Translations under genes and position numbers: made by a program
NCBI GenBank assembly: GCA_937975645.1
Contig: CALJTV010000005.1
Location: 2,021 to 66,020 of the forward strand
Direction: 5' to 3'
Source: an uncultured Dehalococcoidia bacterium
GTDB taxonomy: Bacteria > Chloroflexota > Dehalococcoidia > GIF9 > UBA5629
Length of the DNA stretch: 64,000 bases
The notes under the pieces: model-generated
Databases searched by the model: none
What the model was told of the DNA's origin: nothing
The model's input: only the letters and a program-made list of their open reading frames with translations
Shown here: piece after piece, positions 1 to 14,408 of the stretch
Numbering within the stretch: position 1 is the first letter of the stretch
Layout of the letters: each line of letters opens with the position of its first letter

Positions 1-927
1 CTGTACATCCCACTTGTCAGCCGGGGCAAAGCTATAGGTGTCCTGAAAGTCAGCAATAAGACCCACAGGAGACTGTTTACCAGATACGACCTCGAGATGC
101 TCACTATACTTGCGGGTCAGGCGGCAACAGCTATAGAAAACGCCAGCCTTTTTAGCGAGATCAAAGTGGAGAAATCAAGGCTCTCTCGTCTGGTTAAAAA
201 GATCTTGCAAGCACAAGAGGAAGAGCGCTCCAGGGTATCCGACGAACTCCACGATACCATCGTCCAGTGGATTGTGAGCGCCTCCTACCACAGCCAGACG
301 GCCAAAGCTTTGATCGCCAGAGGAAAATTCAACGATGCCACTCTGGAACTGGAGGAGGCTAACCGGATAATCGACCAATCAATACGTGAGATCCGCCGCA
401 TCATCATTAACCTCCGACCTAACTTGCTCAGCGAACTTGGCTTACTAGAAGCCCTCCAGTACCACCTCAGAGCTATGGAAAGGGAGAGTGGGATTGTTTG
501 TCATTTTGCGGTGCAGGGTAAACCTCGCCCCCTCACCTGGCCCCGGGAAATAACCATATACCGCATAGTTCTGGAAGCGCTAAACAATATCAAAAAGCAC
601 TCCCGAGCGAACGAAATGGAGCTCGTCATCTGGTTCTCGCCAGATACGGTGCGAGTCTCGGTGGCAGACAACGGCATAGGGTTCGACCTCACAAAGGTAA
701 CCGAGAATGCCCATGAAAATGGTAGTATCGGTTTGTTGAGCATGCAAGAACGGGCAAACATGGTCGGTGGCGAACTGAAAGTAGAATCAAGCCCGGGTGC
801 CGGGACCACCATAACCCTCCTCATCCCCACCAGAAAGCGCGAGAACAAAAACGGCAACGGTGTACCGCCATTACCTATCAATGTCAAAGGAGGTAGCCAT
901 GACCACCATCAAAGTCATGATAGTTGA
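1..927 (+). CDS. Sensor histidine kinase, C-terminal part (end of GAF + HisKA_3 + HATPase_c); 5' end lies outside the window
   Basis: Frame 1 is open from nt 1 (LYIPLVSRGKAIGVLKV...AIENASLF, a GAF-like end). H-box 'SRVSDELHDTIVQ' is typical of NarX/DegS-type HisKA_3. ATP-binding boxes: 'EALNNIKKHS', 'DNGIGF', 'GLLSMQERA..GGELKVESSPGAGTT'. Confidence 0.85.
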   Translation: MYIPLVSRGKAIGVLKVSNKTHRRLFTRYDLEMLTILAGQAATAIENASLFSEIKVEKSRLSRLVKKILQAQEEERSRVSDELHDTIVQWIVSASYHSQTAKALIARGKFNDATLELEEANRIIDQSIREIRRIIINLRPNLLSELGLLEALQYHLRAMERESGIVCHFAVQGKPRPLTWPREITIYRIVLEALNNIKKHSRANEMELVIWFSPDTVRVSVADNGIGFDLTKVTENAHENGSIGLLSMQERANMVGGELKVESSPGAGTTITLLIPTRKRENKNGNGVPPLPINVKGGSHDHHQSHDS

Positions 928-1531
928 TGACCACCGTGTCGTCAGAGAAGGGCTACGCAGCATGCTACAGCTCGATCCCACCATCGAAGTGGTAGGTGAG
1001 GCAGACTGTGGGGAAAAGGTGCTAAAAGACGTGGAAAAACTGTCACCGGATGTTATCTTGATGGATGCCAAGATGCCAGATATGAGCGGCATCGAGGCTA
1101 CAAGACAGCTCAAAGAGCGGGGATGTAATGCCAAAATAGTCATCCTCACTGGCTATGAAGACAAGTATCTAACACAAGCCGCCGAAGCCGGCGCAACCGG
1201 CTACCTAGTCAAAGCTATTAGCCAAGAGGAACTGGTAAATGCGGTAAAATCAGCCTACTACGGTAAATCGCCGCTGTCGCCTGAGGTGACCCAGAGCCTG
1301 TTCCATACCTTCGCCACTTTTTCTAGACTCAACCGCAACAACCTGCTCACCCCACGCCAGCTTGAAATCCTCAGGCTCATCGCTGCCGGCGCCACCAACA
1401 AACAAATTAGCCAGAAGCTGTTTATCAGCGAGGCTACCGTCAAGAGGGAGACCAATGCCATCTTTGAAAAACTGGACGTTGTCGATAGGGCACAGGCAGT
1501 AGCCGAAGCCTACCGAAGAAACATCCTCTAG
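899..1531 (+). CDS. NarL/LuxR-family response regulator (REC + HTH_LuxR)
   Basis: 'KVMIVDDHRVVREGL', 'DVILMDAKMPDMSG', 'GATGYLVK', and C-terminal 'LTPRQLEILRLIAAGATNKQISQKLFISEATVK'. ATG at 899 follows AAAGGAGGT. The ORF-track start at 860 has no RBS and overlaps the kinase further. Confidence 0.9.
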   Translation: MTTIKVMIVDDHRVVREGLRSMLQLDPTIEVVGEADCGEKVLKDVEKLSPDVILMDAKMPDMSGIEATRQLKERGCNAKIVILTGYEDKYLTQAAEAGATGYLVKAISQEELVNAVKSAYYGKSPLSPEVTQSLFHTFATFSRLNRNNLLTPRQLEILRLIAAGATNKQISQKLFISEATVKRETNAIFEKLDVVDRAQAVAEAYRRNIL

Positions 1532-1562: not shown

Positions 1563-1586
1563 GAAAGCCCCAGCAAAGGGGCTTTC
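1563..1586 (+). terminator. Stem-loop after the response regulator gene (candidate intrinsic terminator)
   Basis: Perfect 9-bp stem GAAAGCCCC (1563-1571) / GGGGCTTTC (1578-1586) with a 6-nt loop. It is followed by CTGCTTTCTC, a weak and interrupted T-tract. Confidence 0.5.
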
Positions 1587-1668: not shown

Positions 1669-2250
1669 TTGGTCGCTTTTTTGTTGCCTTTTAGCACTTC
1701 CAGTCCCTTTGCACCAACTGCCACAATATGCATGAACATCTCAGCAAAGCGGGGGATGACAATGGATATAGCAATGTACAGCCGTCTTTCCAATTCTATG
1801 CATAGCGACAATCGTGACACAGCCATACGTGTAATGCTCATTGAAGCCAGACAGGCAATGCGGGAGGGATTGAGACAGATGCTCGAGGACGAAAACGGCA
1901 TCGAAGTAATCGCCGAGGCACCCGATACCCACACCGCGATTAGCCAGCTGAAGACGCTAGCACCAGACAGCATCATCGTCGATATTGAACCGGAAGTCGA
2001 CCATACTCCCGAAAAGGTGGAACGCCTGAAGAAAGTAATACGGCTACTCAGAAAAGCCGCCGAGCAAGCCAGCATCATTATCCTCAGCGACAACCATGAG
2101 CTACTGGCACCGGCAATTACCAGCGGTATAGCAGGCTACCTGACAAAAAGCGTTAATCGCGATGAACTCGCAGTAGCAGTGCGCATAACTAACCTGTGGC
2201 GGCTGGTGCTTTTCTCGAATCAGCAAAATTTCGCTCTGGTCAAGATTTAG
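1669..2250 (+). CDS. Stand-alone receiver-like protein (NarL-subfamily REC fold, atypical acidic pocket, no output domain)
   Basis: 'IRVMLIEARQAMREGLRQML' has E-A where the canonical DD pair sits. 'DSIIVDIEPE' retains a candidate phospho-Asp. An insertion replaces the usual MPxMxG. 'IIILS' and 'GYLTK' retain the conserved S/T and K. There is no HTH. The true start is uncertain (several in-frame Met codons between 1669 and about 1790). Confidence 0.55.
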   Translation: MVAFLLPFSTSSPFAPTATICMNISAKRGMTMDIAMYSRLSNSMHSDNRDTAIRVMLIEARQAMREGLRQMLEDENGIEVIAEAPDTHTAISQLKTLAPDSIIVDIEPEVDHTPEKVERLKKVIRLLRKAAEQASIIILSDNHELLAPAITSGIAGYLTKSVNRDELAVAVRITNLWRLVLFSNQQNFALVKI

Positions 2251-2365: not shown

Positions 2366-2986
2366 GTGGACAAACTGATCAAAACTATCTCAAGGCTGCA
2401 CAAGGGGGAAAGAGGTATGACTGGACTGGAGACAGCCATCATACTCATTGCCTTCGTCACTGTGGCTGCAGTATTCGGCTACGCAGTGCTGAGCGCCGGA
2501 CTGTTCTCCGCTGAAAGGGGTAAAGAGGTCATCTTCGCCGGTGTCGAGCAGGCAAAGACCAACCTGGAGGTGTCAGGGTCGGTCATCGGGTATGCCAACA
2601 ATGAGACACAGGAACTTACCACACTGCTGATAACAGTAAAGAACGCGGTCGCTGGTAACCCCATCGATATGACCCCCAACTGGGGGGATACTCTAGGACA
2701 GAACAAGACGGTCATCAGCCTTAAGACTGCTACTGAATACCTTCCCAACATAGCCTGGAACGTGACACCGGTAGGCGCAGCCGACAGTGACTACCTGCTC
2801 GAGGTCGGGGAGCAATTCCAGATCGAAATCGACCTCACTAACCTTGATGGAAATGGCACCGGGCTGGCCATTCCACTGGGACCCAACGACAAGTTCTCCA
2901 TCCAGGTCAAACCAGCGCTCGGCTCCACCATCATCGTGCAGCGGACATTGCCACCCGAGCTTGATACCGTTATGGACCTGTACTAA
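2366..2986 (+). CDS. arlB: Archaellin (archaeal flagellin, ArlB/FlaB family) with a class III (type IV pilin-like) signal peptide
   Basis: The N-terminus '...HKGERG|MTGLETAIILIAFVTVAAVFGYAVLSAGLF' closely matches the conserved archaellin N-terminus (compare crenarchaeal FlaB '...KG|LAGLDTAIILIAFIITAAVLAYVAINMGLF'). GTG start sits 7 nt after AAAGGAGGT. It is the first gene of the arl cluster. Confidence 0.85.
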   Translation: MDKLIKTISRLHKGERGMTGLETAIILIAFVTVAAVFGYAVLSAGLFSAERGKEVIFAGVEQAKTNLEVSGSVIGYANNETQELTTLLITVKNAVAGNPIDMTPNWGDTLGQNKTVISLKTATEYLPNIAWNVTPVGAADSDYLLEVGEQFQIEIDLTNLDGNGTGLAIPLGPNDKFSIQVKPALGSTIIVQRTLPPELDTVMDLY

Positions 2987-3025
2987 AAAGACCGTCGCTT
3001 GGTGAGGCACTGTCCTGAACAACAT

Positions 3026-3063
3026 CTCTCGGGCATCCTCACTGAAGTGGGGATGCCCGAGAG
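3026..3063 (+). promoter_or_regulatory. Strong intra-operon stem-loop between arlB and the next gene (attenuator or mRNA 3'-stabiliser candidate)
   Basis: Perfect 13-bp inverted repeat CTCTCGGGCATCC (3026-3038) / GGATGCCCGAGAG (3051-3063), extendable by G-U and C-G pairs to an 8-nt loop. It lies 40 nt after the arlB stop. It is followed by GCAAAAAGG, so there is no U-tract. Confidence 0.5.
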
Positions 3064-3083
3064 GCAAAAAGGGGACTTGTGAA

Positions 3084-3791
3084 ATGGGACTGGAACAGAG
3101 GATAACAGCCCTCGAAGATGAAATCAAAGTCCTGAAGAACGAAATAAAGGCGGTTCTTCTGGACATAAGAGAGCATTACCTGCAACTGAGCAATCCCTTC
3201 ACCTCTCTCAACACCCTAAAAGTCCCCAGTGTAGATGAGAGCGACGGATTAACTAACGACCAAGACAAATACGTAATAGAAGAAGGTAAGCACACCTCAC
3301 GGAATAGCAAGCCCCCCATACTATCCAAACCTGCTGAAATAAAGGAAGAGCCGGCAATGCATGACCACCAGTTCGTTACTGCCGAGCCCTCGGCTTCCGA
3401 CCTGGAAATGCTCCACTCCGTCGAGAACCATTCAATACCAGCAAGACCCAAAAGGCAGTCATTTAGGACGACGCACGACAGCAGTTTTGACTTGGTGGTG
3501 ATCGCAGGGCTCACCCAGTGGGTAGACCAAGCAACAGCCACTTTAGGTAAAGAAAGGGCTGAAGCCCTTGTTGAAATAGCCTATACCATGCGGCATTTCT
3601 CTACTGAGGTAAGAGATGCGCTTATTAGACTGATAAGGCTTTCGCCACGCGAAAATGGCATCAGCAAGATGATAGGCGCCAAGGACTATCTCGCAGTGCT
3701 CGCCCAACTGGACAACCTGCTAGCAAACGAGCACCACGAAAACACCCTGCTCTCCATCCTTACCATGATGAAGGAGGCTTCGGATGGATAA
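3084..3791 (+). CDS. arlCDE: ArlC/D/E-like archaellum accessory protein (N-terminal FlaC-type coiled coil + C-terminal FlaD/E-like domain)
   Basis: Heptad coiled coil 'LEQRITALEDEIKVLKNEIKAVLLDIRE'. The C-terminal 'LVVIAGLTQWVDQATATLGKERAEALVEIAYTMRHFSTEVRDALIRLIRL' resembles the FlaD/E C-terminal domain as I recall it. Its position between arlB and arlF/G matches euryarchaeal synteny. Confidence 0.6.
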   Translation: MGLEQRITALEDEIKVLKNEIKAVLLDIREHYLQLSNPFTSLNTLKVPSVDESDGLTNDQDKYVIEEGKHTSRNSKPPILSKPAEIKEEPAMHDHQFVTAEPSASDLEMLHSVENHSIPARPKRQSFRTTHDSSFDLVVIAGLTQWVDQATATLGKERAEALVEIAYTMRHFSTEVRDALIRLIRLSPRENGISKMIGAKDYLAVLAQLDNLLANEHHENTLLSILTMMKEASDG

Positions 3792-4251
3792 AGCATTGGT
3801 CACCATCCTGCTAATCATAGCCGGTGTGGTCTGCACCATGGTCATAGTCAATGCAGTATACCCACTAATAACCGGGACCAGCGGGGCACTGACAGATGCG
3901 GTCCAGAGGATAGACGACCGCATCAGGAGCAACATCAAGATCATCGAAATCTCCTCCAATGGCACAGATGTTTACATTTGGATAAAGAATATAGGCGCAT
4001 CTACCATCGGTGCCATCGATAAAAGCGATGTCTTTTTCGGTCCCGAAGGCAACTTCGCCCGAATACCGTTTGGAAGTACCGGCTCACCGCTGCCATATTG
4101 GGACTACACCCTAGAGGACGGTAGTGACGCTTGGAAACCATCTTCGACCTTAAAAATTACCATTCATTTACAGCAAGCCCAGTCCGGCACCCAGTTCATC
4201 AAATTCATTACGCATAACGGGATATCGGACTGGCAGCTATTTAGCATGTAG
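3784..4251 (+). CDS. arlF: ArlF/ArlG-family archaellum stator-like protein (N-terminal TM helix + beta-sandwich); ArlF by synteny
   Basis: N-terminal hydrophobic helix 'LVTILLIIAGVVCTMVIVNAVYPLI' followed by a beta-rich domain of about 120 aa. The 8-nt overlap (ATGGATAA) with the upstream gene indicates translational coupling. The F versus G assignment rests on gene order only. Confidence 0.6.
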   Translation: MDKALVTILLIIAGVVCTMVIVNAVYPLITGTSGALTDAVQRIDDRIRSNIKIIEISSNGTDVYIWIKNIGASTIGAIDKSDVFFGPEGNFARIPFGSTGSPLPYWDYTLEDGSDAWKPSSTLKITIHLQQAQSGTQFIKFITHNGISDWQLFSM

Positions 4252-4255
4252 CAAA

Positions 4256-4753
4256 ATGGAGAACTTAGTAATAACTCTAGCCTGTATTAGTCTGATACTG
4301 TTCGGAGCAGCAAACGTGATGATGGTCTCCTTACACTCAGTAGACGAATTCAGCCAGTCATGGAGCAACATCCAGAAATTGGCTAACGAAAGGGTACTCA
4401 CCAAGATAACTGCCACAGGTGCCGAAATTAACACACAAGGCGACCAGGTAACAATAACATTGCTGAACGAAGGAAATACATCCCTGTCTCAGTTCATCGC
4501 ATGGGACGTTATTTTAAGATATGGCGATGGGGATACGATCCGCTTACCGCACGGGCAGACAACACCGGGCTGGAGCATTTCCAGCATCTCATTCCAGGGA
4601 CTGCCCGAGACCCTCCAGCCAAGTATCCTAGACCCGGGGGAAGAAATGAACATCGTCCTAAGGCTATCAACCCCAGTGAGCGAAAACACTACCAACATGG
4701 TGACAGTCTCAACCCATAATGGCATCACCACCAGAATACTTTTCAGGAGGTAG
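4256..4753 (+). CDS. arlG: ArlF/ArlG-family archaellum protein (second paralogue); ArlG by synteny
   Basis: Same architecture: TM helix 'LVITLACISLILFGAANVMMVSL' plus a beta-rich domain. The gap from the upstream gene is 4 nt. It lies immediately upstream of arlH. Confidence 0.6.
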   Translation: MENLVITLACISLILFGAANVMMVSLHSVDEFSQSWSNIQKLANERVLTKITATGAEINTQGDQVTITLLNEGNTSLSQFIAWDVILRYGDGDTIRLPHGQTTPGWSISSISFQGLPETLQPSILDPGEEMNIVLRLSTPVSENTTNMVTVSTHNGITTRILFRR

Positions 4754-4758
4754 AAAAG

Positions 4759-5472
4759 ATGCCACAAACAGACACCGAGCCCAAAAAAGAACTGACGGTA
4801 TGTACCGGACAGAGCGAGATAGATAAAAGATTGGGCGGAGGCATACCCATGGGTTCATTGGTCCTCCTCGAAGGGCAATCAGACTCAGGCAAGTCGGTCC
4901 TGGTCCAGCAAATGACCTGGTCCTCCCTTCAAAACAACCTAAGAATACTGTTCTACACCACCGAAAATACGGTTAGAAGCCTGGACAAACAGATGGAAAG
5001 CTTAGGGTTAAGCATTACCGACTACATCCTCCTGGGCTGGGTCAAAATATTCCAGATAAAGTCCACTATCAGTATGCGGGACAATGCTTTCGGCACCATC
5101 GTCAAAGGCATCGAAGCGCACCCCGAATACAAAGTTGTGGTCGTAGATGCCGTAACACCGTTCATAGCCCACAGCTCCACAGAGGAGATAATCCGCTACT
5201 TCGAAGCATGCAAAGGGCTGTGCGATAGTGGTAAGACTATTCTTAACGTAGCACATACCTATGCCTTTGATGAGCAGCTACTTATACGAATAGGTTCAGT
5301 TTGCGATGCCCACCTACGTCTGCGAATCGAAGAGGTGGGAGAAAAACTGGTCAAAGTACTTGAGGTGGCAAAAATAAGAGGTGCTGATAAGAACACCGGG
5401 AACATTATCAGCTTCGATGTAGAACCCGGCATGGGACTAAAGGTACTGCCAATGGGCAGAGCCAAAGCTTAG
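4759..5472 (+). CDS. arlH: ArlH (FlaH), KaiC/RecA-like ATP-binding protein of the archaellum motor
   Basis: 'IDKRLGGGIPMGSLVLLEGQSDSGKSVLVQQM' (Walker A GxxxxGKS), Walker-B-like 'KVVVVDAV', about 237 aa. AGGAGG lies 6 nt upstream of the ATG. It sits directly before arlI. Confidence 0.8.
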   Translation: MPQTDTEPKKELTVCTGQSEIDKRLGGGIPMGSLVLLEGQSDSGKSVLVQQMTWSSLQNNLRILFYTTENTVRSLDKQMESLGLSITDYILLGWVKIFQIKSTISMRDNAFGTIVKGIEAHPEYKVVVVDAVTPFIAHSSTEEIIRYFEACKGLCDSGKTILNVAHTYAFDEQLLIRIGSVCDAHLRLRIEEVGEKLVKVLEVAKIRGADKNTGNIISFDVEPGMGLKVLPMGRAKA

Positions 5473-5487
5473 AGTGAGGGACACCAT

Positions 5488-7260
5488 ATGCCGCAGGTGG
5501 TACTGCCGTTTGAAGTTAAACCAGGCAAGCAAAAGGACACAGCGACTTCCATGGCGAGCATCCAGCAAAGCTTGTCACCAGACTTTCAGGAGGTCACTAG
5601 AAGGAGCCCATTTCTGCTCCGCTACCTCTGCATGTTGCCCCTTAAGGAAATCGGTCTGCCTAGATATTGTGCCAAGCTGGAAAGGAGTATGTCTGAGATA
5701 CGTAAGCCGAACATCATCTACCCCGTCAAAGGCGGCACCTTTGTCCACATTCTTTTCGACCCTGATGACGCCCGCCACCACTACATCATCATCGAGCCAA
5801 TCCTCAACGATAACCTAGAACCGCTGCTCCAAGAGTTGGAACTAAGGATGCTTAACTTGTCCGACCTATTGCTAACCACCAAGAGCGACGATGAAGACTC
5901 CAAGAAAGCCACTTTCCTCCGCATACTGGACGAGCTGTGCGAGGTCACCACTACTACACCGGCACAGAACACATCTGCTAAGAACAACAAAAAAAACGGT
6001 AAGTTGCCATTCCACCCAAATGACCTTAAAGCCCTCCTTTCCAGAAAGGTCGATAAAATCCAAGTTACCCCTCACCAGCTGCAATGCCTTAAGTATTTGA
6101 TAATCAGGGACAAACTTGGGCTGGGAATAATAGAACCTCTAGTACGTGACACTTACCTCGAAGACATCAGCTGCAGCGGCATGGGTATGATTTATGTGGA
6201 GCATAAAATCTTCCACAGTCTTAAGACCACCATATCATTCCCTACCCACGAGGAGCTGGACTTGTTTGTCATGCGCCTCTCCGAGCGTATGAAGAAACCG
6301 GTCAGTATCCACAACCCCATTTGTGATGCTACCCTACCGGATGGCTCCAGAATAAACATAGTTTACGGGAAGGACATCTCAAAGCGTGGCTCCAATTTCA
6401 CCATACGCCGTTTTAGCGAAACACCACTTTCCGTGTTGGAACTGATAGAGATGGGAACACTGGATTACAACATGGCAGGGTACCTGGCAGTAATGATAGG
6501 CGAGGGTATGAACACCTTCGTCTGCGGCGAGACAGCTTCAGGAAAGACGACCACACTCAATGCGCTGACCACCTTTATCCACCCGAATGCCAAGATAGTA
6601 AGCATAGAGGACACCCCAGAACTTCAGGTGCCACACAAAAACTGGATAAGGGAAGTAACGTCGACCAAGGAAGGAAGCGAGAGCGGGGTGACCATGTTTG
6701 ACTTACTTAAAGCAGCGTTGAGGCAGCGCCCGAATTTCATCATAGTGGGCGAGATCCGCGGTGCTGAGGGCGCCATAGCCTTTCAGGCAATGCAGACAGG
6801 TCACTCGGTCATGGCAACTTTCCACGCTGCCTCGGTGGAAAGGCTGATACAGCGCCTTACCGGAAACCCAATAAATGTCCCCAAAACATACATGGACAAC
6901 CTGAACCTGGTGGTTATTCAGAGCGCCGTGAAACTGCCGTCAGGCAAGACAGGACGCAGGATGACCAGTATATGCGAAATTGTAGGATATGATCCAGTCA
7001 ACCAGTCCTTCTCGTTCGTCGAGGTCTTCCGCTGGGACTCTGTCAACGACTCTTTCATCTTTAGTGGCTTCGGCAACAGCTACCTGATGGAATACAAGAT
7101 AGCACCAAAATTGGGGATCCCCCAGTTCCAAAAGAAAAGAATCTATGCGGAGATCGACCGCAGGGCTAAAGTACTGGAGAAACTGCACAAGCAAGGGGTA
7201 ACCAACTTCTATGAACTTCTCAGCATTCTTGCCAAAGCTAAAAACGAAGGACTCTTCTAA
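5488..7260 (+). CDS. arlI: ArlI (FlaI), type II/IV secretion-family hexameric ATPase of the archaellum
   Basis: 'VCGETASGKTTTLNAL' (Walker A), 'IVSIEDTPELQ' (Asp box), 'PNFIIVGEIRGAEG' (Walker B), 'GHSVMATFHA' (His box). The N-terminal domain is long, with a low-complexity insert. Confidence 0.9.
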   Translation: MPQVVLPFEVKPGKQKDTATSMASIQQSLSPDFQEVTRRSPFLLRYLCMLPLKEIGLPRYCAKLERSMSEIRKPNIIYPVKGGTFVHILFDPDDARHHYIIIEPILNDNLEPLLQELELRMLNLSDLLLTTKSDDEDSKKATFLRILDELCEVTTTTPAQNTSAKNNKKNGKLPFHPNDLKALLSRKVDKIQVTPHQLQCLKYLIIRDKLGLGIIEPLVRDTYLEDISCSGMGMIYVEHKIFHSLKTTISFPTHEELDLFVMRLSERMKKPVSIHNPICDATLPDGSRINIVYGKDISKRGSNFTIRRFSETPLSVLELIEMGTLDYNMAGYLAVMIGEGMNTFVCGETASGKTTTLNALTTFIHPNAKIVSIEDTPELQVPHKNWIREVTSTKEGSESGVTMFDLLKAALRQRPNFIIVGEIRGAEGAIAFQAMQTGHSVMATFHAASVERLIQRLTGNPINVPKTYMDNLNLVVIQSAVKLPSGKTGRRMTSICEIVGYDPVNQSFSFVEVFRWDSVNDSFIFSGFGNSYLMEYKIAPKLGIPQFQKKRIYAEIDRRAKVLEKLHKQGVTNFYELLSILAKAKNEGLF

Positions 7261-8749
7261 AGGAGCGAAGAGCGCCCAGAACAAAAAAGAGTCCGTCAAT
7301 ACCGAACTGCTCGGTGTCGACCTGTTCTGCCACCTGACATATATGGCAGCCGTTTCAACATCAAAACTGCCACGCCACATCGTCTTCGAGTACGCAGCCA
7401 AATTACCCTACATATCTTCTCGATACATAAGAGATGTTACCTTCTTGGCACATCAGCTAAATTACGACTATCCTGAAGCATGCCGCATGATAGGGCAGAG
7501 GGCTAAAGAGCCCGAAGTGCGAGCCCTCCTCCTCAGAATGTCAAACTCCTTCGCCTCGGGCGAGGATGAAGGGGAGTTTCTAGCCAGAGAGGCTTCTGTG
7601 GCCGGTGAAATATATTCAGAACAGTACCAGCACAGCGTCGAAAGCCTGAAAAAATGGACTGATGCTTATGCCGCACTCATCCTTTCCGCTGCCCTCATCG
7701 TGGTCATCTGCGTGGTCTCCATGCTCATCTTCCCCATGGACAAGAACACCATAGCCGTGCTCACCTGGTTCATGCTTGTAGCTATAATGGCTGGCGGCTG
7801 GATTATGTACCGTGCCTCGCCAAAAGAGACCAAGACACACTCTCTCGAAATTAAGTCGCCAGAGCAAGAGATAGGCACCAAACTGTTCAAAGTCATGGTG
7901 CCTCTAGCTGGCATCGTTGGGCTGGTGTGCTTAATTGCCGGGGCACCGCTGGGTGTCACCATGTTGTTACTCGCTGTCCTGCTCCTTCCCCCAGGTCTAG
8001 CACTGTTTATCGACGACCGGAAAATAGACAAAAGAGATGCCGAGATAGGCGGCTTTCTCAGGTCAGTGGGCAGCATCAGTAAAGCTATAGGTGCCACCAT
8101 AGCTGAGACGCTGGACAGACTGGACTACAACGCCCTTCACTCTCTTAAAAATCTCGCTCAGAAATTAAAAGCTTCGCTGAGCTTTGGCATCACACCGCAG
8201 CTATGCTGGCAGAGGTTTGTTGGCGAAACAGGAAGCGAGACCATCCACCGCAGCGTACGCACCTTCTATGATGGTGTCGAACTCGGTGGCGACCCAGAGG
8301 TAATCGGTACCGAATGTGCCGACCTCGCCATGAAGGTCTCTCTGTTGCGAGAAAAAAGGAAAGCAGTGGCTTCGAGCTTTTCCTATCTTTGCATAGTGAT
8401 GCATACAGCCATAGTAGCGCTGCTTGTAGGCATCTATCAGGTCGTACTCAAATTCTCAGAAGCCCTGCAAACGGCTGGGGAATCAGGTGCTATGGAGGGA
8501 CTCACCGGTCTGCCCGTGTTCCAGCTTATCCACGATGCCAGTCAGCTTTCTCAGCTTAAACTCATGACTACAGCCCTGATAATCGTACTCACGCTGGTAA
8601 ATCCTGCAGCAATAAAATTTGTCGAAGGGGGTCACAATTACAAGTACCTTTTCTACCTCAGCATAACTCTGGCGATCTCAGGGCTCTGTCTTCTAGCTGT
8701 CCCCTCTATGGTATCCAACGTGTTCGGTTTCATATCCTTAATAAAGTGA
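7211..8749 (+). CDS. arlJ: ArlJ (FlaJ), polytopic membrane platform protein (TadB/C-GspF-like, duplicated)
   Basis: 'LFCHLTYMAAVSTSKLPRHIVFEYAA' matches the conserved FlaJ N-terminal motif. Multiple TM segments are present and the domain is duplicated. The only in-frame start upstream of the conserved block is ATG 7211, a 50-nt overlap with arlI. Confidence 0.85.
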   Translation: MNFSAFLPKLKTKDSSKGAKSAQNKKESVNTELLGVDLFCHLTYMAAVSTSKLPRHIVFEYAAKLPYISSRYIRDVTFLAHQLNYDYPEACRMIGQRAKEPEVRALLLRMSNSFASGEDEGEFLAREASVAGEIYSEQYQHSVESLKKWTDAYAALILSAALIVVICVVSMLIFPMDKNTIAVLTWFMLVAIMAGGWIMYRASPKETKTHSLEIKSPEQEIGTKLFKVMVPLAGIVGLVCLIAGAPLGVTMLLLAVLLLPPGLALFIDDRKIDKRDAEIGGFLRSVGSISKAIGATIAETLDRLDYNALHSLKNLAQKLKASLSFGITPQLCWQRFVGETGSETIHRSVRTFYDGVELGGDPEVIGTECADLAMKVSLLREKRKAVASSFSYLCIVMHTAIVALLVGIYQVVLKFSEALQTAGESGAMEGLTGLPVFQLIHDASQLSQLKLMTTALIIVLTLVNPAAIKFVEGGHNYKYLFYLSITLAISGLCLLAVPSMVSNVFGFISLIK

Positions 8750-9384
8750 GGCTGTGTATGGACTTCTGGCAATTCGGCATTTACATAGTGATACTCAGCG
8801 GGGCTTCCTCCCTAGTAATCATGACCATAGTCCTCATGGTGAGAAAAATGAGCCAACATACACCTCCACAGTCTAGAGCTAAAAGTAAAACCACCGCTAA
8901 CGAGTGGGCACATGCACCATCCAGCAAGGGTACGGCTGCGTCCGCTACACCACCCACACCAAGCCTCACAGAACAAAGCAAGGTCACCCACGAGGAAACA
9001 ATACAACCGGAACCAGCACAGGAGAGTGCCAGGCTGGATATCACTGAAGAATTGTCGCTGTCAAGCCCGTTGAGCACACCGGGAACAATAGAACCCGCTT
9101 TGCTAGGCGGGGCTAGCGTGCTTGAGCCATCAGGAACAATCGAAACGGTGCTGACAGAGGCGAGCAGCGTGGCACCCGAACAAGCCGATGACCAAACAAA
9201 CGAAGAGTATGACGCAGCAAACAATGAAAACGACGACCCGTTGAGTATCTTCCACATGGAGGATACTCAGGAAAACCCTATCTCTGAACTCAGCGTTTCA
9301 CTCCCTGATATCGATGCATCAAGTCTGCTCAAGGAAGGCAAGGAGATTTTGAGAATTCTGGGGGTCGAAGCAGAAGAGTACTAA
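8746..9384 (+). CDS. Single-pass membrane protein with a long acidic, S/T/P/E-rich, probably disordered domain; unknown function
   Basis: GTG 8746 overlaps the arlJ stop (GTGA); an alternative ATG is at 8758. TM helix 'FGIYIVILSGASSLVIMTIVLMV' is followed by RK. The remainder is low-complexity and acidic, ending in an amphipathic 'LLKEGKEILRILGV'. I recognise no family. Confidence 0.55.
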   Translation: MRLCMDFWQFGIYIVILSGASSLVIMTIVLMVRKMSQHTPPQSRAKSKTTANEWAHAPSSKGTAASATPPTPSLTEQSKVTHEETIQPEPAQESARLDITEELSLSSPLSTPGTIEPALLGGASVLEPSGTIETVLTEASSVAPEQADDQTNEEYDAANNENDDPLSIFHMEDTQENPISELSVSLPDIDASSLLKEGKEILRILGVEAEEY

Positions 9385-9400
9385 AGTACAGGGGGTTACT

Positions 9401-11116
9401 ATGAACAGACAGGATATTCTCCAACAAAAAGACTTACCATCCAATTTCAGACAGAATCCCCTGCCGCAGAAAAAGCGCCACACTACAACTTCCCTGTTCG
9501 GAACCGCTGCGCGCGGTCCCGTGCGCTACTTCTGTTTCGCAATGTTGCTGGCATCATTGCTATTCTCTGCAAGCAAAGTATCTGCTGACAATAGCAAACC
9601 GCGCATCAGTGTACTTCCGGGGCAGGGTCCTGTAGGGACCGAGGTCATCGCACAAATATCTGGCTTCCCAGCTAAGACAGGGGTACTCATCGCCGCACGA
9701 GAGAAGACTTGCATCGTGCAGAAAACAGTAACAGATAACGACGGCGTTGCCCTGGCAACCTTCAAAATAGCAGAGCAGCCAGCCGGCTGGTGTCAGATAT
9801 GGGCTTACGACGAGACAAACATAGCTTGGGTAATGTTCACGGTCGTACCCTCGGTCGAACTCAGTAAAACATCCGGGTACGTCGGCGAAGAAGTGTCCGT
9901 CAATGCCTACGGCTTGGCTGAAAAAAGAGAGGTTACAGTGTATTTCGACGGGAAAAAGGTGGCAGTAGGACAGACGAACGAAAAAGGCACGGCGAGCGGC
10001 CTGACTTTCAAAGTGCCGAAGAGCTGCCGGGGTAAGCACACCATAACAGTCGACGACGGCAAAAACGAGAGCCAGGAGACATCGTTCCTCGTCCACCAGA
10101 AGTTCACTATGGCACCCAAAAGCGGGCAGCCCGGCACCGAGGTCACGGTCTCTGGCACTGGGTTCGCTGCCTCCACCGATGTGATCATCTATTTTGACGA
10201 TAGAGATGTTGCTTTAGCACCCACAGATGACACAGGTAGCTTCACCGCCAACTTTAGGGTGCCTAAAGCTGCCGGAGGAATGCACAGCATCAAGGCTGAC
10301 GATGGCACCAACCGCTACTATGAGGACTTTGCCATCGAAGCTGCGATAGTGCATAACCCCAAAGAAGGTGCTGTTGGCGAAAAGGTGGTTATCGAGGGTG
10401 CCGGCTTTACCCCCAACACACCAGTAACAATCAGTTTCGACAACAAGAAGATCGGGACCACCACCTCTACAAGCGAAGGCTCCTTCATCTTCACCTTCAA
10501 CGTGCCGTCCTGCCTCCACGGCGAACGGACAATTACCGTGTCGGACGGCTCTGTCACCAGACAGGCTAAGTTTATGGTGGACTCCACACCACCTCCTGTA
10601 CCTCGCTTGCTTAGCCCATCAGGCGGCTCCCGTCTTACCAGTGTAACCACCTTCGAATGGGAAGAGGTCACAGACGCCAGCGGTGTCAAGTACGTCCTTG
10701 AAATAGCAACCGATACAGAATTTTCAAACGTAATTATCTCCGCAAAAAACCTGGCTTCTCCCCGATTTACACTTTCCCAGGAGCAACAAAAGCTACTCAA
10801 ACCAGCCAAGACCCCCTACGTATGGCGGGTAAGAGCCATCGATGGTGCTTTCAATTCAAGCGATTGGGCTGAGACAAGATCATTCTTCGTCGGAGCCACT
10901 GTATCTACCGTGGTGAAAAATATGCCGCCTTGGGTGACTTATTCATTGCTTGGCTTGCTTTTTGCCCTGATCGCCACCTTTTTCTACTACCTTGGCTATA
11001 TAAGAAACCAGAAACAGAGCGACTATGCTGAATTGACAATTGACGAGCAAACTCCCCAATGGGAGCAATACGACGAGACCAACTACACTGGTAGCAAAAA
11101 AATGGGTTACAAATGA
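9401..11116 (+). CDS. Cell-surface protein: signal peptide, 4 tandem Ig-like (IPT/TIG-like) repeats, one Fn3-like domain, C-terminal TM anchor
   Basis: Signal-like 'FCFAMLLASLLFSASKVSA|DN'. The repeats carry 'G.PGTEVTVSGTGF...V.IYFD...TD..G.F...F.VP....G.H.I...DG'. Also present: 'TTFEWEEVTDASGVKYVLEIATDTEF...WRVRAIDG' and the TM 'WVTYSLLGLLFALIATFFYYLGYI'. The gap after the upstream gene is 17 nt, with GGGGGT before the ATG. Confidence 0.75.
   Translation: MNRQDILQQKDLPSNFRQNPLPQKKRHTTTSLFGTAARGPVRYFCFAMLLASLLFSASKVSADNSKPRISVLPGQGPVGTEVIAQISGFPAKTGVLIAAREKTCIVQKTVTDNDGVALATFKIAEQPAGWCQIWAYDETNIAWVMFTVVPSVELSKTSGYVGEEVSVNAYGLAEKREVTVYFDGKKVAVGQTNEKGTASGLTFKVPKSCRGKHTITVDDGKNESQETSFLVHQKFTMAPKSGQPGTEVTVSGTGFAASTDVIIYFDDRDVALAPTDDTGSFTANFRVPKAAGGMHSIKADDGTNRYYEDFAIEAAIVHNPKEGAVGEKVVIEGAGFTPNTPVTISFDNKKIGTTTSTSEGSFIFTFNVPSCLHGERTITVSDGSVTRQAKFMVDSTPPPVPRLLSPSGGSRLTSVTTFEWEEVTDASGVKYVLEIATDTEFSNVIISAKNLASPRFTLSQEQQKLLKPAKTPYVWRVRAIDGAFNSSDWAETRSFFVGATVSTVVKNMPPWVTYSLLGLLFALIATFFYYLGYIRNQKQSDYAELTIDEQTPQWEQYDETNYTGSKKMGYK
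9602..10579 (+). repeat. Four tandem intragenic repeats of about 81-83 codons (Ig-like domains)
   Basis: Protein residues about 68-148, 149-231, 232-312 and 313-393 align on shared motifs (GxxVxVxGxGF, YFD, F.VP, G.H.I). The copies are diverged at the DNA level. Confidence 0.7.
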
Positions 11117-11136
11117 ACTGAAAAAGGAGTCAGACA

Positions 11137-12885
11137 ATGATGAGCACACGCATCTATCGCAAACTAAAAATTGAGTCCCGGCAATTGAAATGGCTCATCC
11201 TGGCTATGGCTGGGACCGTCCTGGCAGCAATACAGATAATGAACTGTGTTTTCTCAGGAAAAGAGCCAATCCATGGTGTGTTTGACTGGGCCTTCGCCAT
11301 GGCAATAATTGCTGCGCTTGTCATTTTCAGCTTTCAGTATCTGGGTAAAATTCAAGATGAACTGGTAACCAAAGAACAGGAAGCTACCGAGTCCAGGAGA
11401 AGTCTGCAACACATAATCGATAACACCGAGGATGCGGTAATGGTATTCGACAAATCGGGAAACTGCACCTTTGCCAACAGAGCTCTGGAAAGAATGAGCG
11501 GCTACCCGTTAGATAAACTGACCACAATGAATCTTCACGAGATTCTCACTCCTGAAGACTATCGCTTCCTCATGGATAAAATACAGAACAGCCCTTTGGC
11601 CGAGCTTGCCATTTACGATGACTTCTACTGCGCCCTCCAGCGACGGCACGAAGGAAAGGTGCCAGTGAAAATGCATCTCATGCCGGTGAAAAATAGGGCT
11701 GGCGATATATCTGGGTTCGAAGCCGTCATCCGCGAGCTCAGAGACCAACATTATGAGACAGAAAGGACACACCAGGAGAGGGAACGTTGTCTCAAGGCTG
11801 TTGCCAAAGTGGGACAGATCATGCTCGCCTCGCAAACAGAAATACCATACGGACAAATACTGGAGCTGCTCGGTGGGACTATAGAAGCTACCAGTGCCAG
11901 TATAACCCTGCGTAACGGCAGCTCTAACGGCTCAGAAACCCTGATCAAAATAGCTGATTGGCAAAGCCACCACCTTGTCACTGAAACATCTAATGGCGCC
12001 TCTCCCTGCGTCACATTCGGCATGGAAGCCCCGCAAAAGGGGCAGATAGCGAACACCATCGCAGCCCCGGCACCCCACAGCCACCACCCACCGGCACTTA
12101 TCCTGCCCCTGGTCACTTCCGAAGGACCACTGGGATTCATCACCTTTTGCAAGCAGCCAGGAAACGATAAATGGAGCCCGCTCCATATCAATCTATTGCA
12201 GACTGCCTCAAGCATGCTGGCTGGAGCCATTGAACGCCAGAGGACGAACAAGCTACTCAAACAACACTTTATCTCCCTGGCCCGGGCAATGGCTGGCTCT
12301 CTCTCTTTTATCGACCCATATACCGCCAGCCACCAAGAGCATGTGGCTAGGATGGCACGTCAGATAGGCATAAGACTGGGACTGAACAGCGAGCAATGCG
12401 AATGGCTACATTTCGGCGGACTCCTTCACGATATAGGGAAAGCCGCTATCCCTGTTTCAATCCTTTCCAAACCGGGAAAACTAGAAGCAGAGGAATGGGT
12501 ACTGATAAAGTCACACGTTAAGCGGGGCTGCCAGCTCCTGCAAGAAATCGAACTACCTGAAATAGTAATCAAAATGGTGCTACAACACCACGAACGGCTT
12601 GACGGGTCAGGCTACCCCCATGGCGTCTCTGGCGACGAAATCTGCCTAGAGGCACGCATCCTCGCTGTTTGCGACGTGGTTGAAGCCATGGGCTCCCACA
12701 GACCTTACCGCCCTGCCTTGCCACTGGAGCAAATACTTTCTGAATTGAAGAGCAACCGTGGGACCAAGTACGACGAACAAATAACAGAATTGATGCTGGA
12801 ACTGATTACCTCAGATCCGGGATTCATCGTGTCAGACAGCAATTTCAAGGTAGCAACAAGCGCATTACCGGGAAAAACAACCTGA
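11137..12885 (+). CDS. Membrane-anchored PAS-GAF-HD-GYP protein (predicted c-di-GMP phosphodiesterase)
   Basis: Two N-terminal TM helices. PAS ('LQHIIDNTEDAVMVFDKSGNCTFANRALERMSGY'). A central GAF-like region. HD-GYP core 'HQEHVARMA...GGLLHDIGKAAIP...HHERLDGSGYPHG'. AAAGGAGT lies before the ATG, 20 nt after the upstream stop. Confidence 0.85.
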   Translation: MMSTRIYRKLKIESRQLKWLILAMAGTVLAAIQIMNCVFSGKEPIHGVFDWAFAMAIIAALVIFSFQYLGKIQDELVTKEQEATESRRSLQHIIDNTEDAVMVFDKSGNCTFANRALERMSGYPLDKLTTMNLHEILTPEDYRFLMDKIQNSPLAELAIYDDFYCALQRRHEGKVPVKMHLMPVKNRAGDISGFEAVIRELRDQHYETERTHQERERCLKAVAKVGQIMLASQTEIPYGQILELLGGTIEATSASITLRNGSSNGSETLIKIADWQSHHLVTETSNGASPCVTFGMEAPQKGQIANTIAAPAPHSHHPPALILPLVTSEGPLGFITFCKQPGNDKWSPLHINLLQTASSMLAGAIERQRTNKLLKQHFISLARAMAGSLSFIDPYTASHQEHVARMARQIGIRLGLNSEQCEWLHFGGLLHDIGKAAIPVSILSKPGKLEAEEWVLIKSHVKRGCQLLQEIELPEIVIKMVLQHHERLDGSGYPHGVSGDEICLEARILAVCDVVEAMGSHRPYRPALPLEQILSELKSNRGTKYDEQITELMLELITSDPGFIVSDSNFKVATSALPGKTT

Positions 12886-12913
12886 TGCTACGAACCAAGG
12901 TTTATCTGAGCAA

Positions 12914-13069
12914 TCAGCGCTTTGTCGATATCTCCCGATAAGCGGCAATGGCAAAAGCCACTGCCATGAGTCCAAAAGCCACAGCAATAAGAGGGGTGCC
13001 CTGAAACATAGCACCCGCTATGGCACCAAAAAGGGCTGCTACCGTGGCCACTGACCAGATGACCGCCAT
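12914..13069 (-). CDS. Small two-TM membrane protein (51 aa), unknown function
   Basis: 'MAVIWSVATVAALFGAIAGAMFQGTPLIAVAFGLMAVAFAIAAYREISTKR'. The internal ATG at 13069 is preceded by GAGGAGGT at a 9-nt spacing; the longer ORF-track start lacks an RBS. Confidence 0.4.
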   Translation of the reverse strand: MAVIWSVATVAALFGAIAGAMFQGTPLIAVAFGLMAVAFAIAAYREISTKR

Positions 13070-13202
13070 TTTCCTATTTACCTCCTCTCGGCTGCCCGCA
13101 GCACCACAGGTGAAGAGTTCAGGTAACATCTATGCTGCAAAGCTGACTTTGATTACCAGTATACAATAACTGATTGCGTTATGCTAGACTTCACGGAGCA
13201 AA

Positions 13203-13901
13203 TCACCGGTACGCGCGGACAAAATGACACTTCTCGCTTATCCGACAGAGGCAATTCACCACATCTGGATCGTAGAGGATATCCCTACACCTCACAATTT
13301 CTTCCAGCGCCTCTTCAGGGCTATGCGCCGGACGGTATGGGCGGTGGGAAACCATAGAATCAAAAACATCTGCCACAGCCACTATCCTCGCCTCAAGGAT
13401 TATCTCGTCACCACGTAGTCCTGTCGGATACCCGCTTCCATCTAACCTCTCATGGTGGTGCAGCACCACCTGAGCAACAGGCCAGGGAAATTCAAGGTTT
13501 TTTAGCACGTCATGACCGACCTTGGAATGTGACTTGACAAGGTTAAACTCCTCAGCACTAAGCCTGCCTGGCTTGTTAAGAATCTCGCCTGGAAGGGTTA
13601 CTTTGCCTATATCATGGACCATGCCCATCACGCAGATACCATCGTTTTGCTGCTCACTTAGCCCAAGCTCTTTGCCTAGAGCGTAAGCTAACTGGGCTAC
13701 CCTTAGCTGGTGTTCAGCAGTATAAGCGTCCTTCTTCTCACACAGGGTGACCATTGCCCAGATTGCCTTATTCAATACCTTCTGCTCAACGACAAATTCT
13801 GGTCCCGTCCTACCCCTTAGGCCCAAAAGCTCCCAACTTCCATCAATAGGACCGCCACCGTTGTCCCGTCCACAAGAGCGAGTCATTTTTCTGTCCTCCA
13901 C
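13203..13901 (-). CDS. Stand-alone HD-GYP domain protein (predicted c-di-GMP phosphodiesterase)
   Basis: 'YTAEHQLRVAQLAYALG', 'GMVHDIGKVTLP', 'HHHERLDGSGYPTG', 'VADVFDSMVSHRPYR'. Confidence 0.85.
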   Translation of the reverse strand: MEDRKMTRSCGRDNGGGPIDGSWELLGLRGRTGPEFVVEQKVLNKAIWAMVTLCEKKDAYTAEHQLRVAQLAYALGKELGLSEQQNDGICVMGMVHDIGKVTLPGEILNKPGRLSAEEFNLVKSHSKVGHDVLKNLEFPWPVAQVVLHHHERLDGSGYPTGLRGDEIILEARIVAVADVFDSMVSHRPYRPAHSPEEALEEIVRCRDILYDPDVVNCLCRISEKCHFVRAYR

Positions 13902-14048
13902 TTACCCTAGATTTCACTACACTTGCATTGCAATACACAGGGCAGCCAAATCTTGCCGCCGAACACAGGCTAAGCAAAAATCCACCTGATTCTACTGACG
14001 TGTTTTCTAAGGTAAGGGAACGGCGCAGAAACAAAACAGTTTAGTCGC

Positions 14049-14405
14049 CTAAGAACAACGACTACAGTGTCTTTTCCACCGGTCTAGAGCCCCAGCTAAC
14101 CTCTGTCCCACAGTAACAGTCACATCGGACTCCTGAACTGGTTCACCATTTACTGACTCGCCAGCCACTACCACTGTAGCTACTCTACCAGTCCTGTTCT
14201 CCACCCTGTCGGCACAAGCTCGGAAACAACCACACAGGATGACCACCACCTCAGCATTGCCCGATGCTGGAGATACCACCTCGAAATCACTAGAGCTCTC
14301 CGCAACGGTACGCAAATGGCGTGCTATCCGGCTAAGGTCTACATAGGGATTGCAACAGCCACAGAACTTCAGGGCTACTCGGCATTTACGCAAACAATGG
14401 CTCAA
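14049..14405 (-). CDS. Small Cys-rich protein, coupled to abfD; unknown function (possible metal or Fe-S binding)
   Basis: The start lies 3 nt after the abfD stop. Ten Cys in 118 aa, including 'CLRKC', 'FCGCC', 'LCGCFRAC' and the C-terminal 'HCSRCS'. Confidence 0.5.
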   Translation of the reverse strand: MSHCLRKCRVALKFCGCCNPYVDLSRIARHLRTVAESSSDFEVVSPASGNAEVVVILCGCFRACADRVENRTGRVATVVVAGESVNGEPVQESDVTVTVGQRLAGALDRWKRHCSRCS

Positions 14406-14408
14406 TTC

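Follow-up and report, generated by a model that had tools for sequence, protein, structure and literature searches.

An archaellum (arl) gene cluster in the first 13 kb of a 64-kb stretch of DNA from an uncultured Dehalococcoidia bacterium (Chloroflexota), here called the window, was found to end in a gene for a phosphodiesterase (PDE) that combines a transmembrane (TM) hairpin with PAS, GAF and HD-GYP domains. The cluster lies on the plus strand, and the PDE gene is its last gene on that strand. The ending of the motor's gene cluster in a sensor enzyme of a type that destroys cyclic di-GMP (c-di-GMP) suggests, without proving it, that the borrowed motor was tied into bacterial 'swim or stick' signalling. 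Taken as a whole, the evidence tips slightly towards the explanation that a sensor PDE, inherited within one clade and made together with the archaellum machinery, lowers c-di-GMP in motile cells. A working bacterial archaellum was first shown in 2025, and how bacteria regulate the archaellum is the question addressed here. In archaea, c-di-GMP was not detected and its enzymes are essentially absent (PMC10249747). Coupling between c-di-GMP and motility is already known; an archaellum operon carrying its own PDE is new. A PDE that is present throughout a clade and catalytically intact by its sequence offers a concrete, testable candidate for the missing control. If the proposal is true, the reach of c-di-GMP extends to a motor that evolved in organisms not using this messenger, and the cluster shows how a machine transferred between domains of life joins the second-messenger network of its recipient.

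The PDE gene named in the preliminary description of this DNA was confirmed as a real open reading frame (ORF). It encodes 582 aa from an ATG start, with PAS and HD-GYP domains (Pfam HD_5, 2.9e-37; HD, 2e-20; PAS, 1.5e-10). The GAF_3 match of 22.9 bits is under the Pfam cut-off of 27, while several orthologues match GAF PF01590. Hydropathy places two hydrophobic helices at the N-terminus, linked by a loop of only a few residues. Conservation of this hairpin is among the highest in the protein and exceeds that of the PAS domain, with D50, W51, F53, M55, L61, V62, F64, S65 and F66 invariant. An AlphaFold2 (AF2) model built with 37 family members in the alignment reached a predicted local distance difference test score (pLDDT) of 78.9. 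It displays the helical hairpin, a PAS domain (residues 100-200), a GAF-like domain with a disordered insert (238-340), an S-helix (348-392) and the HD-GYP domain (394-559), the last with pLDDT of 81-94. Foldseek matched the model to the HD-GYP structures 4MCW, 9RBZ and 4R8Z at E-values of 5e-18 to 3e-11, which places it in the HD-GYP fold. The top match was the GAF-HD-GYP enzyme PmGH (4MCW, E 5e-18) over 387 columns including its GAF domain, and both the model and Foldseek show the PmGH arrangement, in which GAF is directly N-terminal to HD-GYP via the S-helix.

Catalytic residues were compared in an alignment of the PDE with PmGH, V-cGAP3, PA4781 and DvhD, with conservation read over the 37 family members and the roles of HD-GYP residues taken as per Galperin and Chou (bioRxiv 10.1101/2021.11.05.467447). 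The HD dyad (PmGH H221-D222) lies in LLHDIGK, where H431 and D432 are invariant. The motif HHExh[D/N]GxGYP, as defined in bioRxiv 10.1101/2021.11.05.467447, is present as HHERLDGSGYP at 484-494, with H484, H485, E486, G492, Y493 and P494 invariant. The other metal ligands H399, H460 and D513 align to PmGH H189, H250 and D305 and are also invariant, as are the substrate motifs K445-P446-G447 and R522-P523-Y524-R525 (RxY[K/R]). Loss of the HD or GYP residues had been named beforehand as fatal to the proposal; instead, HD, HHExxDGxGYP, KPG and RxYR do not vary in the family. In all, the family keeps seven of the eight metal ligands of PmGH without variation. The eighth, the third-metal ligand E185, is replaced by Tyr395 (DPYTASH), and the PDE is thus assigned to the binuclear subclass while still being a bona fide HD-GYP protein. 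Binuclear 'Tyr' HD-GYPs usually stop at pGpG (bioRxiv 10.1101/2021.11.05.467447), which is expected to be the main product here. The PDE is predicted to be a catalytically competent, membrane-anchored sensor phosphodiesterase, with c-di-GMP as its probable substrate.

The surroundings of the gene were compared with those of other arl clusters. An ArlI profile run against 185,579 species-representative genomes found 31 loci; all are bacterial, and all but one come from Chloroflexota. Window proteins mapped onto the scanned loci (numbered with the prefix L) by BLAST separated them into two groups, the first of which, clade A, has a single arlI gene whose product is at least 60% identical to the window ArlI. 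The nearest species representative is a Dehalococcoidia metagenome-assembled genome (MAG), DAOTWF010000030.1, with ArlI identity of 94%. The features of the window cluster, in order, are as follows.

1..927, plus strand: C-terminal part of a histidine kinase (Pfam HisKA_3 and HATPase_c), truncated by the window start; conserved upstream of arlB in the clade
860..1531, plus strand: NarL/LuxR-type response regulator (Pfam REC and GerE helix-turn-helix); position conserved
1563..1586, plus strand: terminator-like hairpin after the kinase-regulator pair, with a 9-bp stem, 6 GC pairs and a T-rich tail
1669..2250 (longest ORF), plus strand: single-domain receiver (REC) directly 5' of arlB (Pfam REC, 6e-13; NCBIfam NarL-like receiver); conserved in clade A
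2366..2986, plus strand: archaellin ArlB (Pfam Arch_flagellin, 1.2e-23)
3025..3064, plus strand: perfect 18-bp GC-rich stem-loop just 3' of arlB (minimum free energy -50.8 kcal/mol, z -5.45)
3084..3791, plus strand: 235-aa coiled-coil protein (X235) in the ArlX/ArlCDE position, without a family match in Pfam or NCBIfam; position conserved
3784..4251, plus strand: ArlG-like stator protein (Pfam Arch_flagellin; NCBIfam ArlG, 3e-9)
4256..4753, plus strand: ArlF-like stator protein (Pfam Arch_flagellin and FlaF_Ig-like; NCBIfam ArlF)
4759..5472, plus strand: KaiC-like ATPase ArlH (Pfam KaiC, 1.4e-21)
5488..7260, plus strand: motor/assembly ATPase ArlI (Pfam T2SSE, 8.6e-40)
7211..8749, plus strand: membrane platform protein ArlJ (NCBIfam ArlJ/FlaJ, 1.1e-132)
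8746..9384, plus strand: 212-aa single-pass membrane protein (U212), without a family match, with positional orthologues and specific to the clade
9401..11116, plus strand: 571-aa type-I membrane protein (TIG571) with IPT/TIG immunoglobulin (Ig) repeats (Pfam TIG, 6.8e-13; NCBIfam Ig-like), with orthologues in all clade A loci
11137..12885, plus strand: the TM hairpin-PAS-GAF-HD-GYP PDE, last plus-strand gene of the cluster (Pfam, AF2, Foldseek, synteny)

Genes from X235 to the PDE (3084 to 12885) are densely packed, and each junction either overlaps or spans at most 20 nt. Overlaps occur between X235 and ArlG (8 nt), ArlI and ArlJ (50 nt) and ArlJ and U212 (4 nt); the gaps are 4 nt for ArlG/ArlF, 5 nt for ArlF/ArlH, 15 nt for ArlH/ArlI, 16 nt for U212/TIG571 and 20 nt for TIG571/PDE. 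Between ArlJ and the PDE start, the intergenic junctions contain no terminator-like or promoter-like site on the plus strand; the sole plus-strand match in this interval is a terminator-like site at 9509-9526, within the TIG571 coding sequence. The PDE gene has its own Shine-Dalgarno (SD) sequence, GGAG, 8 nt 5' of the ATG. The short gaps, the lack of an intervening terminator or promoter and the SD sequence had all been put forward in the preliminary description and stand. It had also placed the PDE directly after the arl genes on the same strand; strand and packing agree, but the two genes before it, U212 and TIG571, are not canonical arl genes.

Conservation of this arrangement was found both in the search for the protein family and in the scanned loci. 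Screening of 5.8 billion proteins gave 38 full-length clusters of PDE orthologues, with 38-100% identity and at least 422 bits. The family boundary is sharp: the next match falls to 276 bits and covers the HD-GYP domain only. Relatives outside the family with a named source are bacterial PAS-HD-GYP proteins, which makes the PDE a bacterial addition to an archaeal-derived cluster. Genomic context was readable for 20 of the 38 family clusters and is arl-linked in all of them, with 19 intact arl clusters and one decayed. Of eight family members looked up directly, seven lie in intact clusters, where three genes precede them: arlJ, one for a protein of about 210-250 aa and one for a TIG protein of about 555-590 aa. 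A metagenome scan with the PDE family alignment was rejected as an orthologue search, as its patterns came from the generic HD-GYP core and it gave 80 unrelated genes and 0 orthologues. As a control, the 80 metagenome loci around generic HD-GYP genes (756 kb) contained no arl genes.

In clade A, U212-like, TIG and PDE genes are present in 16/16 loci that reach far enough. The synteny check proposed in the preliminary description accordingly places an orthologue at the same site in every one of these species representatives, besides the 20 readable family contexts. The gaps between TIG and PDE genes in relatives range from 17 to 73 nt; a purine-rich, SD-like stretch is present in each (mostly GGAG), and a terminator-like site in none. 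In the distant relatives with gaps of 50-73 nt, folding was not significant (z -1.1 to -1.6), and neither terminator-like nor promoter-like sites occur. Domain content is less uniform, the PDE of L021 having no GAF domain. Some Chloroflexi are said to be rich in HD-GYP genes (bioRxiv 10.1101/2021.11.05.467447), and the PDE might on that account have come to lie next to the cluster by chance, without being tied to it functionally. However, its position, strand and short gap are kept in all 16 species while ArlI identity falls to 60%, PDE identity falls to 39% and the downstream genes are replaced, and each orthologue with known context is arl-linked. A chance neighbour is extremely improbable, and the synteny comes close to refuting it. 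Over 105 pairs, sequence identity of the PDE correlates with that of ArlI, ArlJ and ArlH (r = 0.97-0.98). The correlation fits co-inheritance since the base of the clade; it is expected of any vertically inherited gene and excludes only replacement by horizontal gene transfer.

Both genes between arlJ and the PDE gene encode putative membrane proteins. In U212, a TM helix at the N-terminus is joined by a long disordered linker to a conserved helix motif at the C-terminus. TIG571 combines the IPT/TIG repeats and a conserved Fn3-like domain with a signal/anchor sequence and, at the C-terminus, a TM helix; it is also specific to the clade. The two proteins always accompany the PDE and may anchor or sense at the bacterial envelope. 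An intramembrane complex with the PDE hairpin was considered and dropped, as the TM segments of TIG571 and U212 are not unusually conserved, while the Fn3-like domain of the former and the C-terminal helix of the latter are.

Four lineages possess a GGDEF-domain gene directly 3' of the PDE gene and on its strand, in four architectures.

L006, 11893-14454, same strand as the PDE gene: 853 aa, four PAS domains-GAF-GGDEF, with GGEEF
L021, 16961-19630, same strand as the PDE gene: 890 aa, with degenerate NGDEF
L122, 7336-10653, same strand as the PDE gene: 1105 aa, starting 1 nt after the PDE stop, with no motif
L119, 11886-13736, same strand as the PDE gene: 616 aa, 7TM-PAS-GGDEF, with GGDEF and an I-site

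The differing architectures suggest repeated recruitment, and the presence of such genes after the PDE in four lineages strengthens the c-di-GMP reading. Two further genes in the window belong to the same signalling families.

13203..13901, minus strand: stand-alone HD-GYP protein of 232 aa, convergent with the PDE gene (Pfam HD_5, 5e-38), with HD and HHERLDGSGYP intact
50310..52040, minus strand: diguanylate cyclase with three PAS domains and GGDEF (Pfam GGDEF, 4.9e-54), with GGDEF and the RxxD I-site intact

The preliminary description had counted both of them in favour of the wiring. A second HD-GYP gene does lie just beyond the PDE gene with its motifs intact, but it is convergent on the minus strand, 317 nt away, and is limited to the window's own sub-clade (L001, L002, L008-L011). 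The cyclase is likewise present, with its GGDEF motif and I-site complete, but on the minus strand and unlinked to the arl cluster; its motifs indicate that the genome could make c-di-GMP. A 47-aa hydrophobic ORF with two predicted TM helices and no family match lies between the two HD-GYP genes (12930-13070, minus strand), and a 51-aa gene was called at its position in L001.

The mechanism that we propose on this basis is as follows. A PDE gene would have been appended at the 3' end of a horizontally acquired arl2-type cluster in one Dehalococcoidia clade. It would have arrived together with a small membrane tether protein (U212) and an Ig-repeat envelope protein, and the trio would since have been inherited with the cluster. 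The PDE is most likely translated from one transcript with the motor genes from X235 to TIG571, so that production of the archaellum machinery would always bring with it a signal-gated c-di-GMP sink at the membrane. Such a sink may keep c-di-GMP low, locally or globally, in motile cells, a role that PdeH fills for the flagellum of enterobacteria. Environmental or redox cues could tune the sink up or down through the PAS and GAF domains and, in some lineages, through the adjacent GGDEF cyclase. That low c-di-GMP means motile in this organism as well is suggested by analogy.

The preliminary description had gone further and suggested that the acquired motor is wired into c-di-GMP logic. Synteny, intact motifs and GGDEF neighbours agree with that claim, but several observations weigh against it and against the mechanism proposed above, and the limited distribution of the PDE is one of them. 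The PDE is absent from 13/13 more distant Chloroflexota arl loci, which comprise a clade with tandem arlI genes and Anaerolineae. The PDE wiring is therefore not a general property of bacterial archaella, and the PDE is a lineage-specific accessory rather than a core component. All members of the PDE family, moreover, come from uncultured MAGs, obtained from peat, fen and sediment.

The stem-loop just 3' of arlB (3025-3064) is a further point on this side. It is followed by CAAAAAGGGG, an A-rich tract without a U tract. Hairpins of differing sequence occur at the same position in most of the 30 Chloroflexota arl loci and in all clades, with none of strength in L016 and L021. The structure is probably a partial terminator or an mRNA stabiliser which sets the ratio of archaellin to machinery. 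Because it separates arlB from the remaining genes, transcription from an arlB promoter would need read-through to reach the PDE gene, and PDE expression need not follow archaellin expression. The PDE is tightly coupled to the machinery genes rather than to arlB.

A receptor for c-di-GMP was also searched for, and none of the PilZ, MshEN or riboswitch type was found in the arl cluster or the 64-kb window. The Pfam-A scan of 59 window ORFs returned no PilZ, EAL or che genes, and regular expressions for the MshEN motif matched none of the cluster proteins, including the N-terminus of ArlI. One PilZ-like string, in the ATPase core of ArlI, was the sole PilZ regular-expression match among the cluster proteins and was taken as chance. 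Rfam gave nothing for the whole window at gathering thresholds or for positions 1-14500 at E <= 1, and hence no c-di-GMP riboswitch. The preliminary description had proposed looking for PilZ or a degenerate site in ArlH/ArlI as the receptor; no credible PilZ or MshEN motif was seen in the cluster proteins.

Persistence of the PDE beyond the motor is seen in the decayed locus L119/L120 (6004-13736). The genes for the histidine kinase, LuxR response regulator, REC, PDE and 7TM-PAS-GGDEF protein are all intact there, whereas arlB is a pseudogene (9103-9627) and the region from X235 to TIG is deleted, with a TIG fragment left at 9720-9869. The signalling genes have outlived the arl genes in this locus, and the PDE thus does not strictly need the motor. 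A rival explanation draws its main support from this locus: the PDE (with or without GGDEF), the REC-GAF kinase, the LuxR regulator and REC would form a signalling island that serves as a general lifestyle switch. The arl genes would be merely adjacent to it or inside it, and the PDE would target adhesion, matrix or other functions with no direct action on the archaellum. The lack of a receptor in the arl cluster fits this as well. Against it, the PDE gene always follows the TIG gene on the arl strand with a gap of 17-73 nt, and it strictly co-occurs with two envelope or membrane genes seen only in these arl clusters. The L119 deletion also looks recent, since the arlB remnant (49% identical to the window ArlB) is about as diverged as the L119 PDE (50% to the window PDE). 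We consider such an island unlikely, and it overlaps with the co-made PDE that we prefer because co-expression with the motor would still couple both programmes.

The identity of the nucleotide has to be weighed too. The closest solved homologue of the PDE by sequence is V-cGAP3 (3e-39), an HD-GYP protein specific for 3'3'-cGAMP (cyclic GMP-AMP), and the substrate cannot be fixed from sequence alone when this is the best match in the PDB. The PDE shares with V-cGAP3 the Tyr in place of the E185 ligand. It might on these grounds hydrolyse 3'3'-cGAMP or mainly pGpG, and the messenger would be other than c-di-GMP. However, RxxQ and RxxN forms shift the specificity to cGAMP while RxY[K/R] is the canonical c-di-GMP form (bioRxiv 10.1101/2021.11.05.467447), and the PDE has the latter (RPYR). 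Two of its GGDEF neighbours in other loci have standard cyclase motifs (L119, GGDEF; L006, GGEEF), and many Tyr-type HD-GYPs convert c-di-GMP to pGpG (bioRxiv 10.1101/2021.11.05.467447). Another messenger is very unlikely.

A further alternative concerns the mode of action. The PDE may be a trigger enzyme or scaffold, acting like RpfG through protein contacts rather than through bulk nucleotide turnover, with the hairpin docked at the ArlJ/ArlI platform and neighbouring GGDEF proteins as partners. High conservation of a TM hairpin whose inter-helix loop is too short for sensing points in this direction, as does the degeneration of some adjacent GGDEF domains (NGDEF in L021, no motif in L122). 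Precedent exists in the complex of RpfG, GGDEF and PilZ proteins on type IV pilus ATPases (PMC3749722). Strict conservation of all catalytic residues argues for enzymatic activity instead; no PilZ protein was found nearby, and the TM conservation of TIG571 and U212 is unremarkable. We regard the scaffold as quite unlikely.

The co-made membrane PDE displays both similarity to and difference from known systems. With PmGH from Persephonella marina it shares the series of GAF-like domain, S-helix and HD-GYP domain (sequence match 8e-33) and the conserved GYP, KPG and RxY[K/R] motifs. It differs in the added TM hairpin and PAS domain and in the Tyr at E185, which predicts a binuclear centre and pGpG. 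We know of no link between PmGH and motility genes. The proposed low-c-di-GMP logic resembles that of PdeH (YhjH) and YcgR in the flagellar regulon of E. coli and Salmonella (PMC12713396). PdeH, however, is a soluble EAL enzyme, chromosomally unlinked and controlled through FliA, with the PilZ protein YcgR as effector, while the window PDE is a membrane HD-GYP protein with sensor domains inside an archaeal-type motor operon. No PilZ-type effector comparable to YcgR was found in the 64 kb of genome covered.

RpfG of Xanthomonas (REC-HD-GYP) is a precedent both for an HD-GYP protein in control of a type IV filament machine, the archaellum being another member of that superfamily, and for HD-GYP and GGDEF proteins acting as partners (PMC3749722). 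Through its GYP motif it brings GGDEF proteins, together with a PilZ protein, to the pilus ATPases PilT/PilU (PMC3749722). RpfG differs in being a response regulator encoded in the rpf cluster and not in the pilus operon, and it acts on the pilus via complexes and independently of catalysis; no PilZ partner was found at the window PDE. Gene order is shared with the cluster of Litorilinea aerophila (Sivabalasarma et al. 2025, PMC12488501), which has the arl2-type order arlB-X-arlG-arlF-arlH-arlI-arlJ, a receiver gene nearby and bacterial accessory genes around the archaeal core. The accessories described there are different ones, PilN and LysM-PilO (PMC12488501). The literature on bacterial archaella (PMC12488501 and its preprint lineage, PMC13319060, PMC10444878 and the F1-chemosensory preprint) contains no mention of c-di-GMP, HD-GYP, GGDEF or phosphodiesterase.

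Upstream of arlB, the signalling genes are also conserved. Full-length relatives of the truncated kinase have the composition REC-GAF-HisKA_3-HATPase_c, and the orthologue in L008 is located at 3795-5441. The LuxR-type regulator (860..1531) is the probable transcriptional regulator of the locus. The true start of the REC gene is probably near 1756-1762, relatives being called at 154-163 aa. A second, paralogous two-component set lies at 21217-24548 on the minus strand, consisting of a Cache-HAMP-GAF-HisKA_3 kinase, a LuxR response regulator and a single REC, and is conserved in L001 and L002.

HD-GYP-like ORFs near other arl clusters were found to belong to a separate, large family of degenerate HD-GYP proteins. 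The HD histidine is present in 0/73 readable sequences among the 120 best members, with QN, KD or EN instead; in the other 47 the GYP or HD pattern of the motif scan was unmatched and the position could not be read. RxY[K/R] is mostly changed among the 120. A model of the degenerate protein (pLDDT 91.5) matches Bd1817 over its length and has an extra C-terminal beta domain, and its core superimposes on the c-di-GMP-bound receptor DvhD at 1.9 A root-mean-square deviation. DvhD (9RBZ) and Bd1817 (3TM8) are themselves degenerate HD-GYPs, like this protein, which lost the HD histidine; unlike them it adds the C-terminal beta domain and sits in chemotaxis operons. The window PDE is not degenerate.

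In L037, L123 and L124 the degenerate HD-GYP gene is directly after cheR in operons of the order (MCP)-cheW-cheA-cheC-cheD-cheY-cheB-cheR. The F1-like che operon regions are located as follows.

L037, 15223-21144, minus strand: F1-like che operon region, convergent on the arl cluster
L123, 1657-11730: F1-like che operon region, on a contig with no arl genes in the stretch read
L124, 656-11688: F1-like che operon region, directly following ArlH and ArlI

The next gene after the degenerate HD-GYP gene encodes a protein of 185-220 aa. Its N-terminal peptide, VLTQAEIDALLSS, LLSQSDIDSLVSG or MLTQEEIDAMFSK, matches the 'EIDALL' motif of FliM, by which CheY-P is bound (PMC9126983). Beyond the N-terminus it has a linker rich in Pro and Ala, a coiled coil and, at the C-terminus, a zinc ribbon whose last residues are WWGWWPKKK. 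The two genes recur in clade A, with the degenerate HD-GYP gene duplicated, just upstream of the kinase-regulator-REC-arlB block in L012 (494-3441), with equivalents in L015-L017 and L019-L021. Neither the window nor its closest relatives showed the pair in the DNA at hand.

CheF, the archaeal switch adaptor that connects CheY-P to the archaellum, is absent from Bacteria (bioRxiv 10.64898/2026.05.11.724246). The F1 chemosensory system is present in only 58 of 226 archaellated Chloroflexota, and in most of them no chemosensory system can be recognised (bioRxiv 10.64898/2026.05.11.724246). Candidates for a bacterial replacement of CheF are the degenerate HD-GYP protein and the EIDAL-motif protein, and this side lead supplies specific proteins to consider as its counterpart. 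Both lines may be joined in one reading, which we regard as conceivable though doubtful: the missing archaeal CheY-CheF-ArlCDE input would be replaced in archaellated bacteria by HD-GYP-based parts. In one clade an active membrane HD-GYP PDE, often with a GGDEF protein, would set local c-di-GMP and so directly gate assembly or rotation. In other clades a dead HD-GYP and the EIDAL protein at the end of the che operon would act as receptor and adaptor at the motor. If this reading is true, c-di-GMP control of an archaellum would be described for the first time, and the switch adaptor would be of a novel type.

Some minor features of the loci were also noted. A small convergent gene for a DUF5658 membrane protein is the usual 3' neighbour and marks the 3' boundary of the arl cluster in both clades. 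It was found in most clade A loci (L003, 11829-12167, minus strand), where the U212-TIG-PDE block lies between ArlJ and the DUF5658 gene, and in several clade B loci (for example L027, 15247-15618, and L036, 8653-8967). In the sub-clade of the window, the DUF5658 homologue is instead upstream of the kinase (L008, 2205-2534). The distant Dehalococcoidia clade (L024-L030, L036, L037) possesses two tandem arlI genes, as in L025 at 9986-11749 and 11756-13507, and each product is 52-57% identical to the window ArlI. One 3.6-kb contig, L038 (JBEKCX010000624.1), binned to a Terracidiphilus (Acidobacteriota) MAG, contains arlB, an X235-like gene, arlG/arlF-like genes and a partial arlI (37%), with no arlH between the arlG/arlF-like genes and the arlI part. 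Either the contig was mis-binned or an archaellum cluster exists outside Chloroflexota.

The remaining window contains bacterial housekeeping genes, including those for tRNA synthetases, purine and fatty-acid synthesis and 2-hydroxyacyl-CoA dehydratase. Close to the stand-alone HD-GYP gene, a Cys-rich protein of 118 aa (14049-14405, minus strand) adjoins a gene for an HpaB-type hydroxylase, and its L001 orthologue carries the Pfam assignment PF27236, a family that takes its name from Archaeoglobus fulgidus AF_0334.

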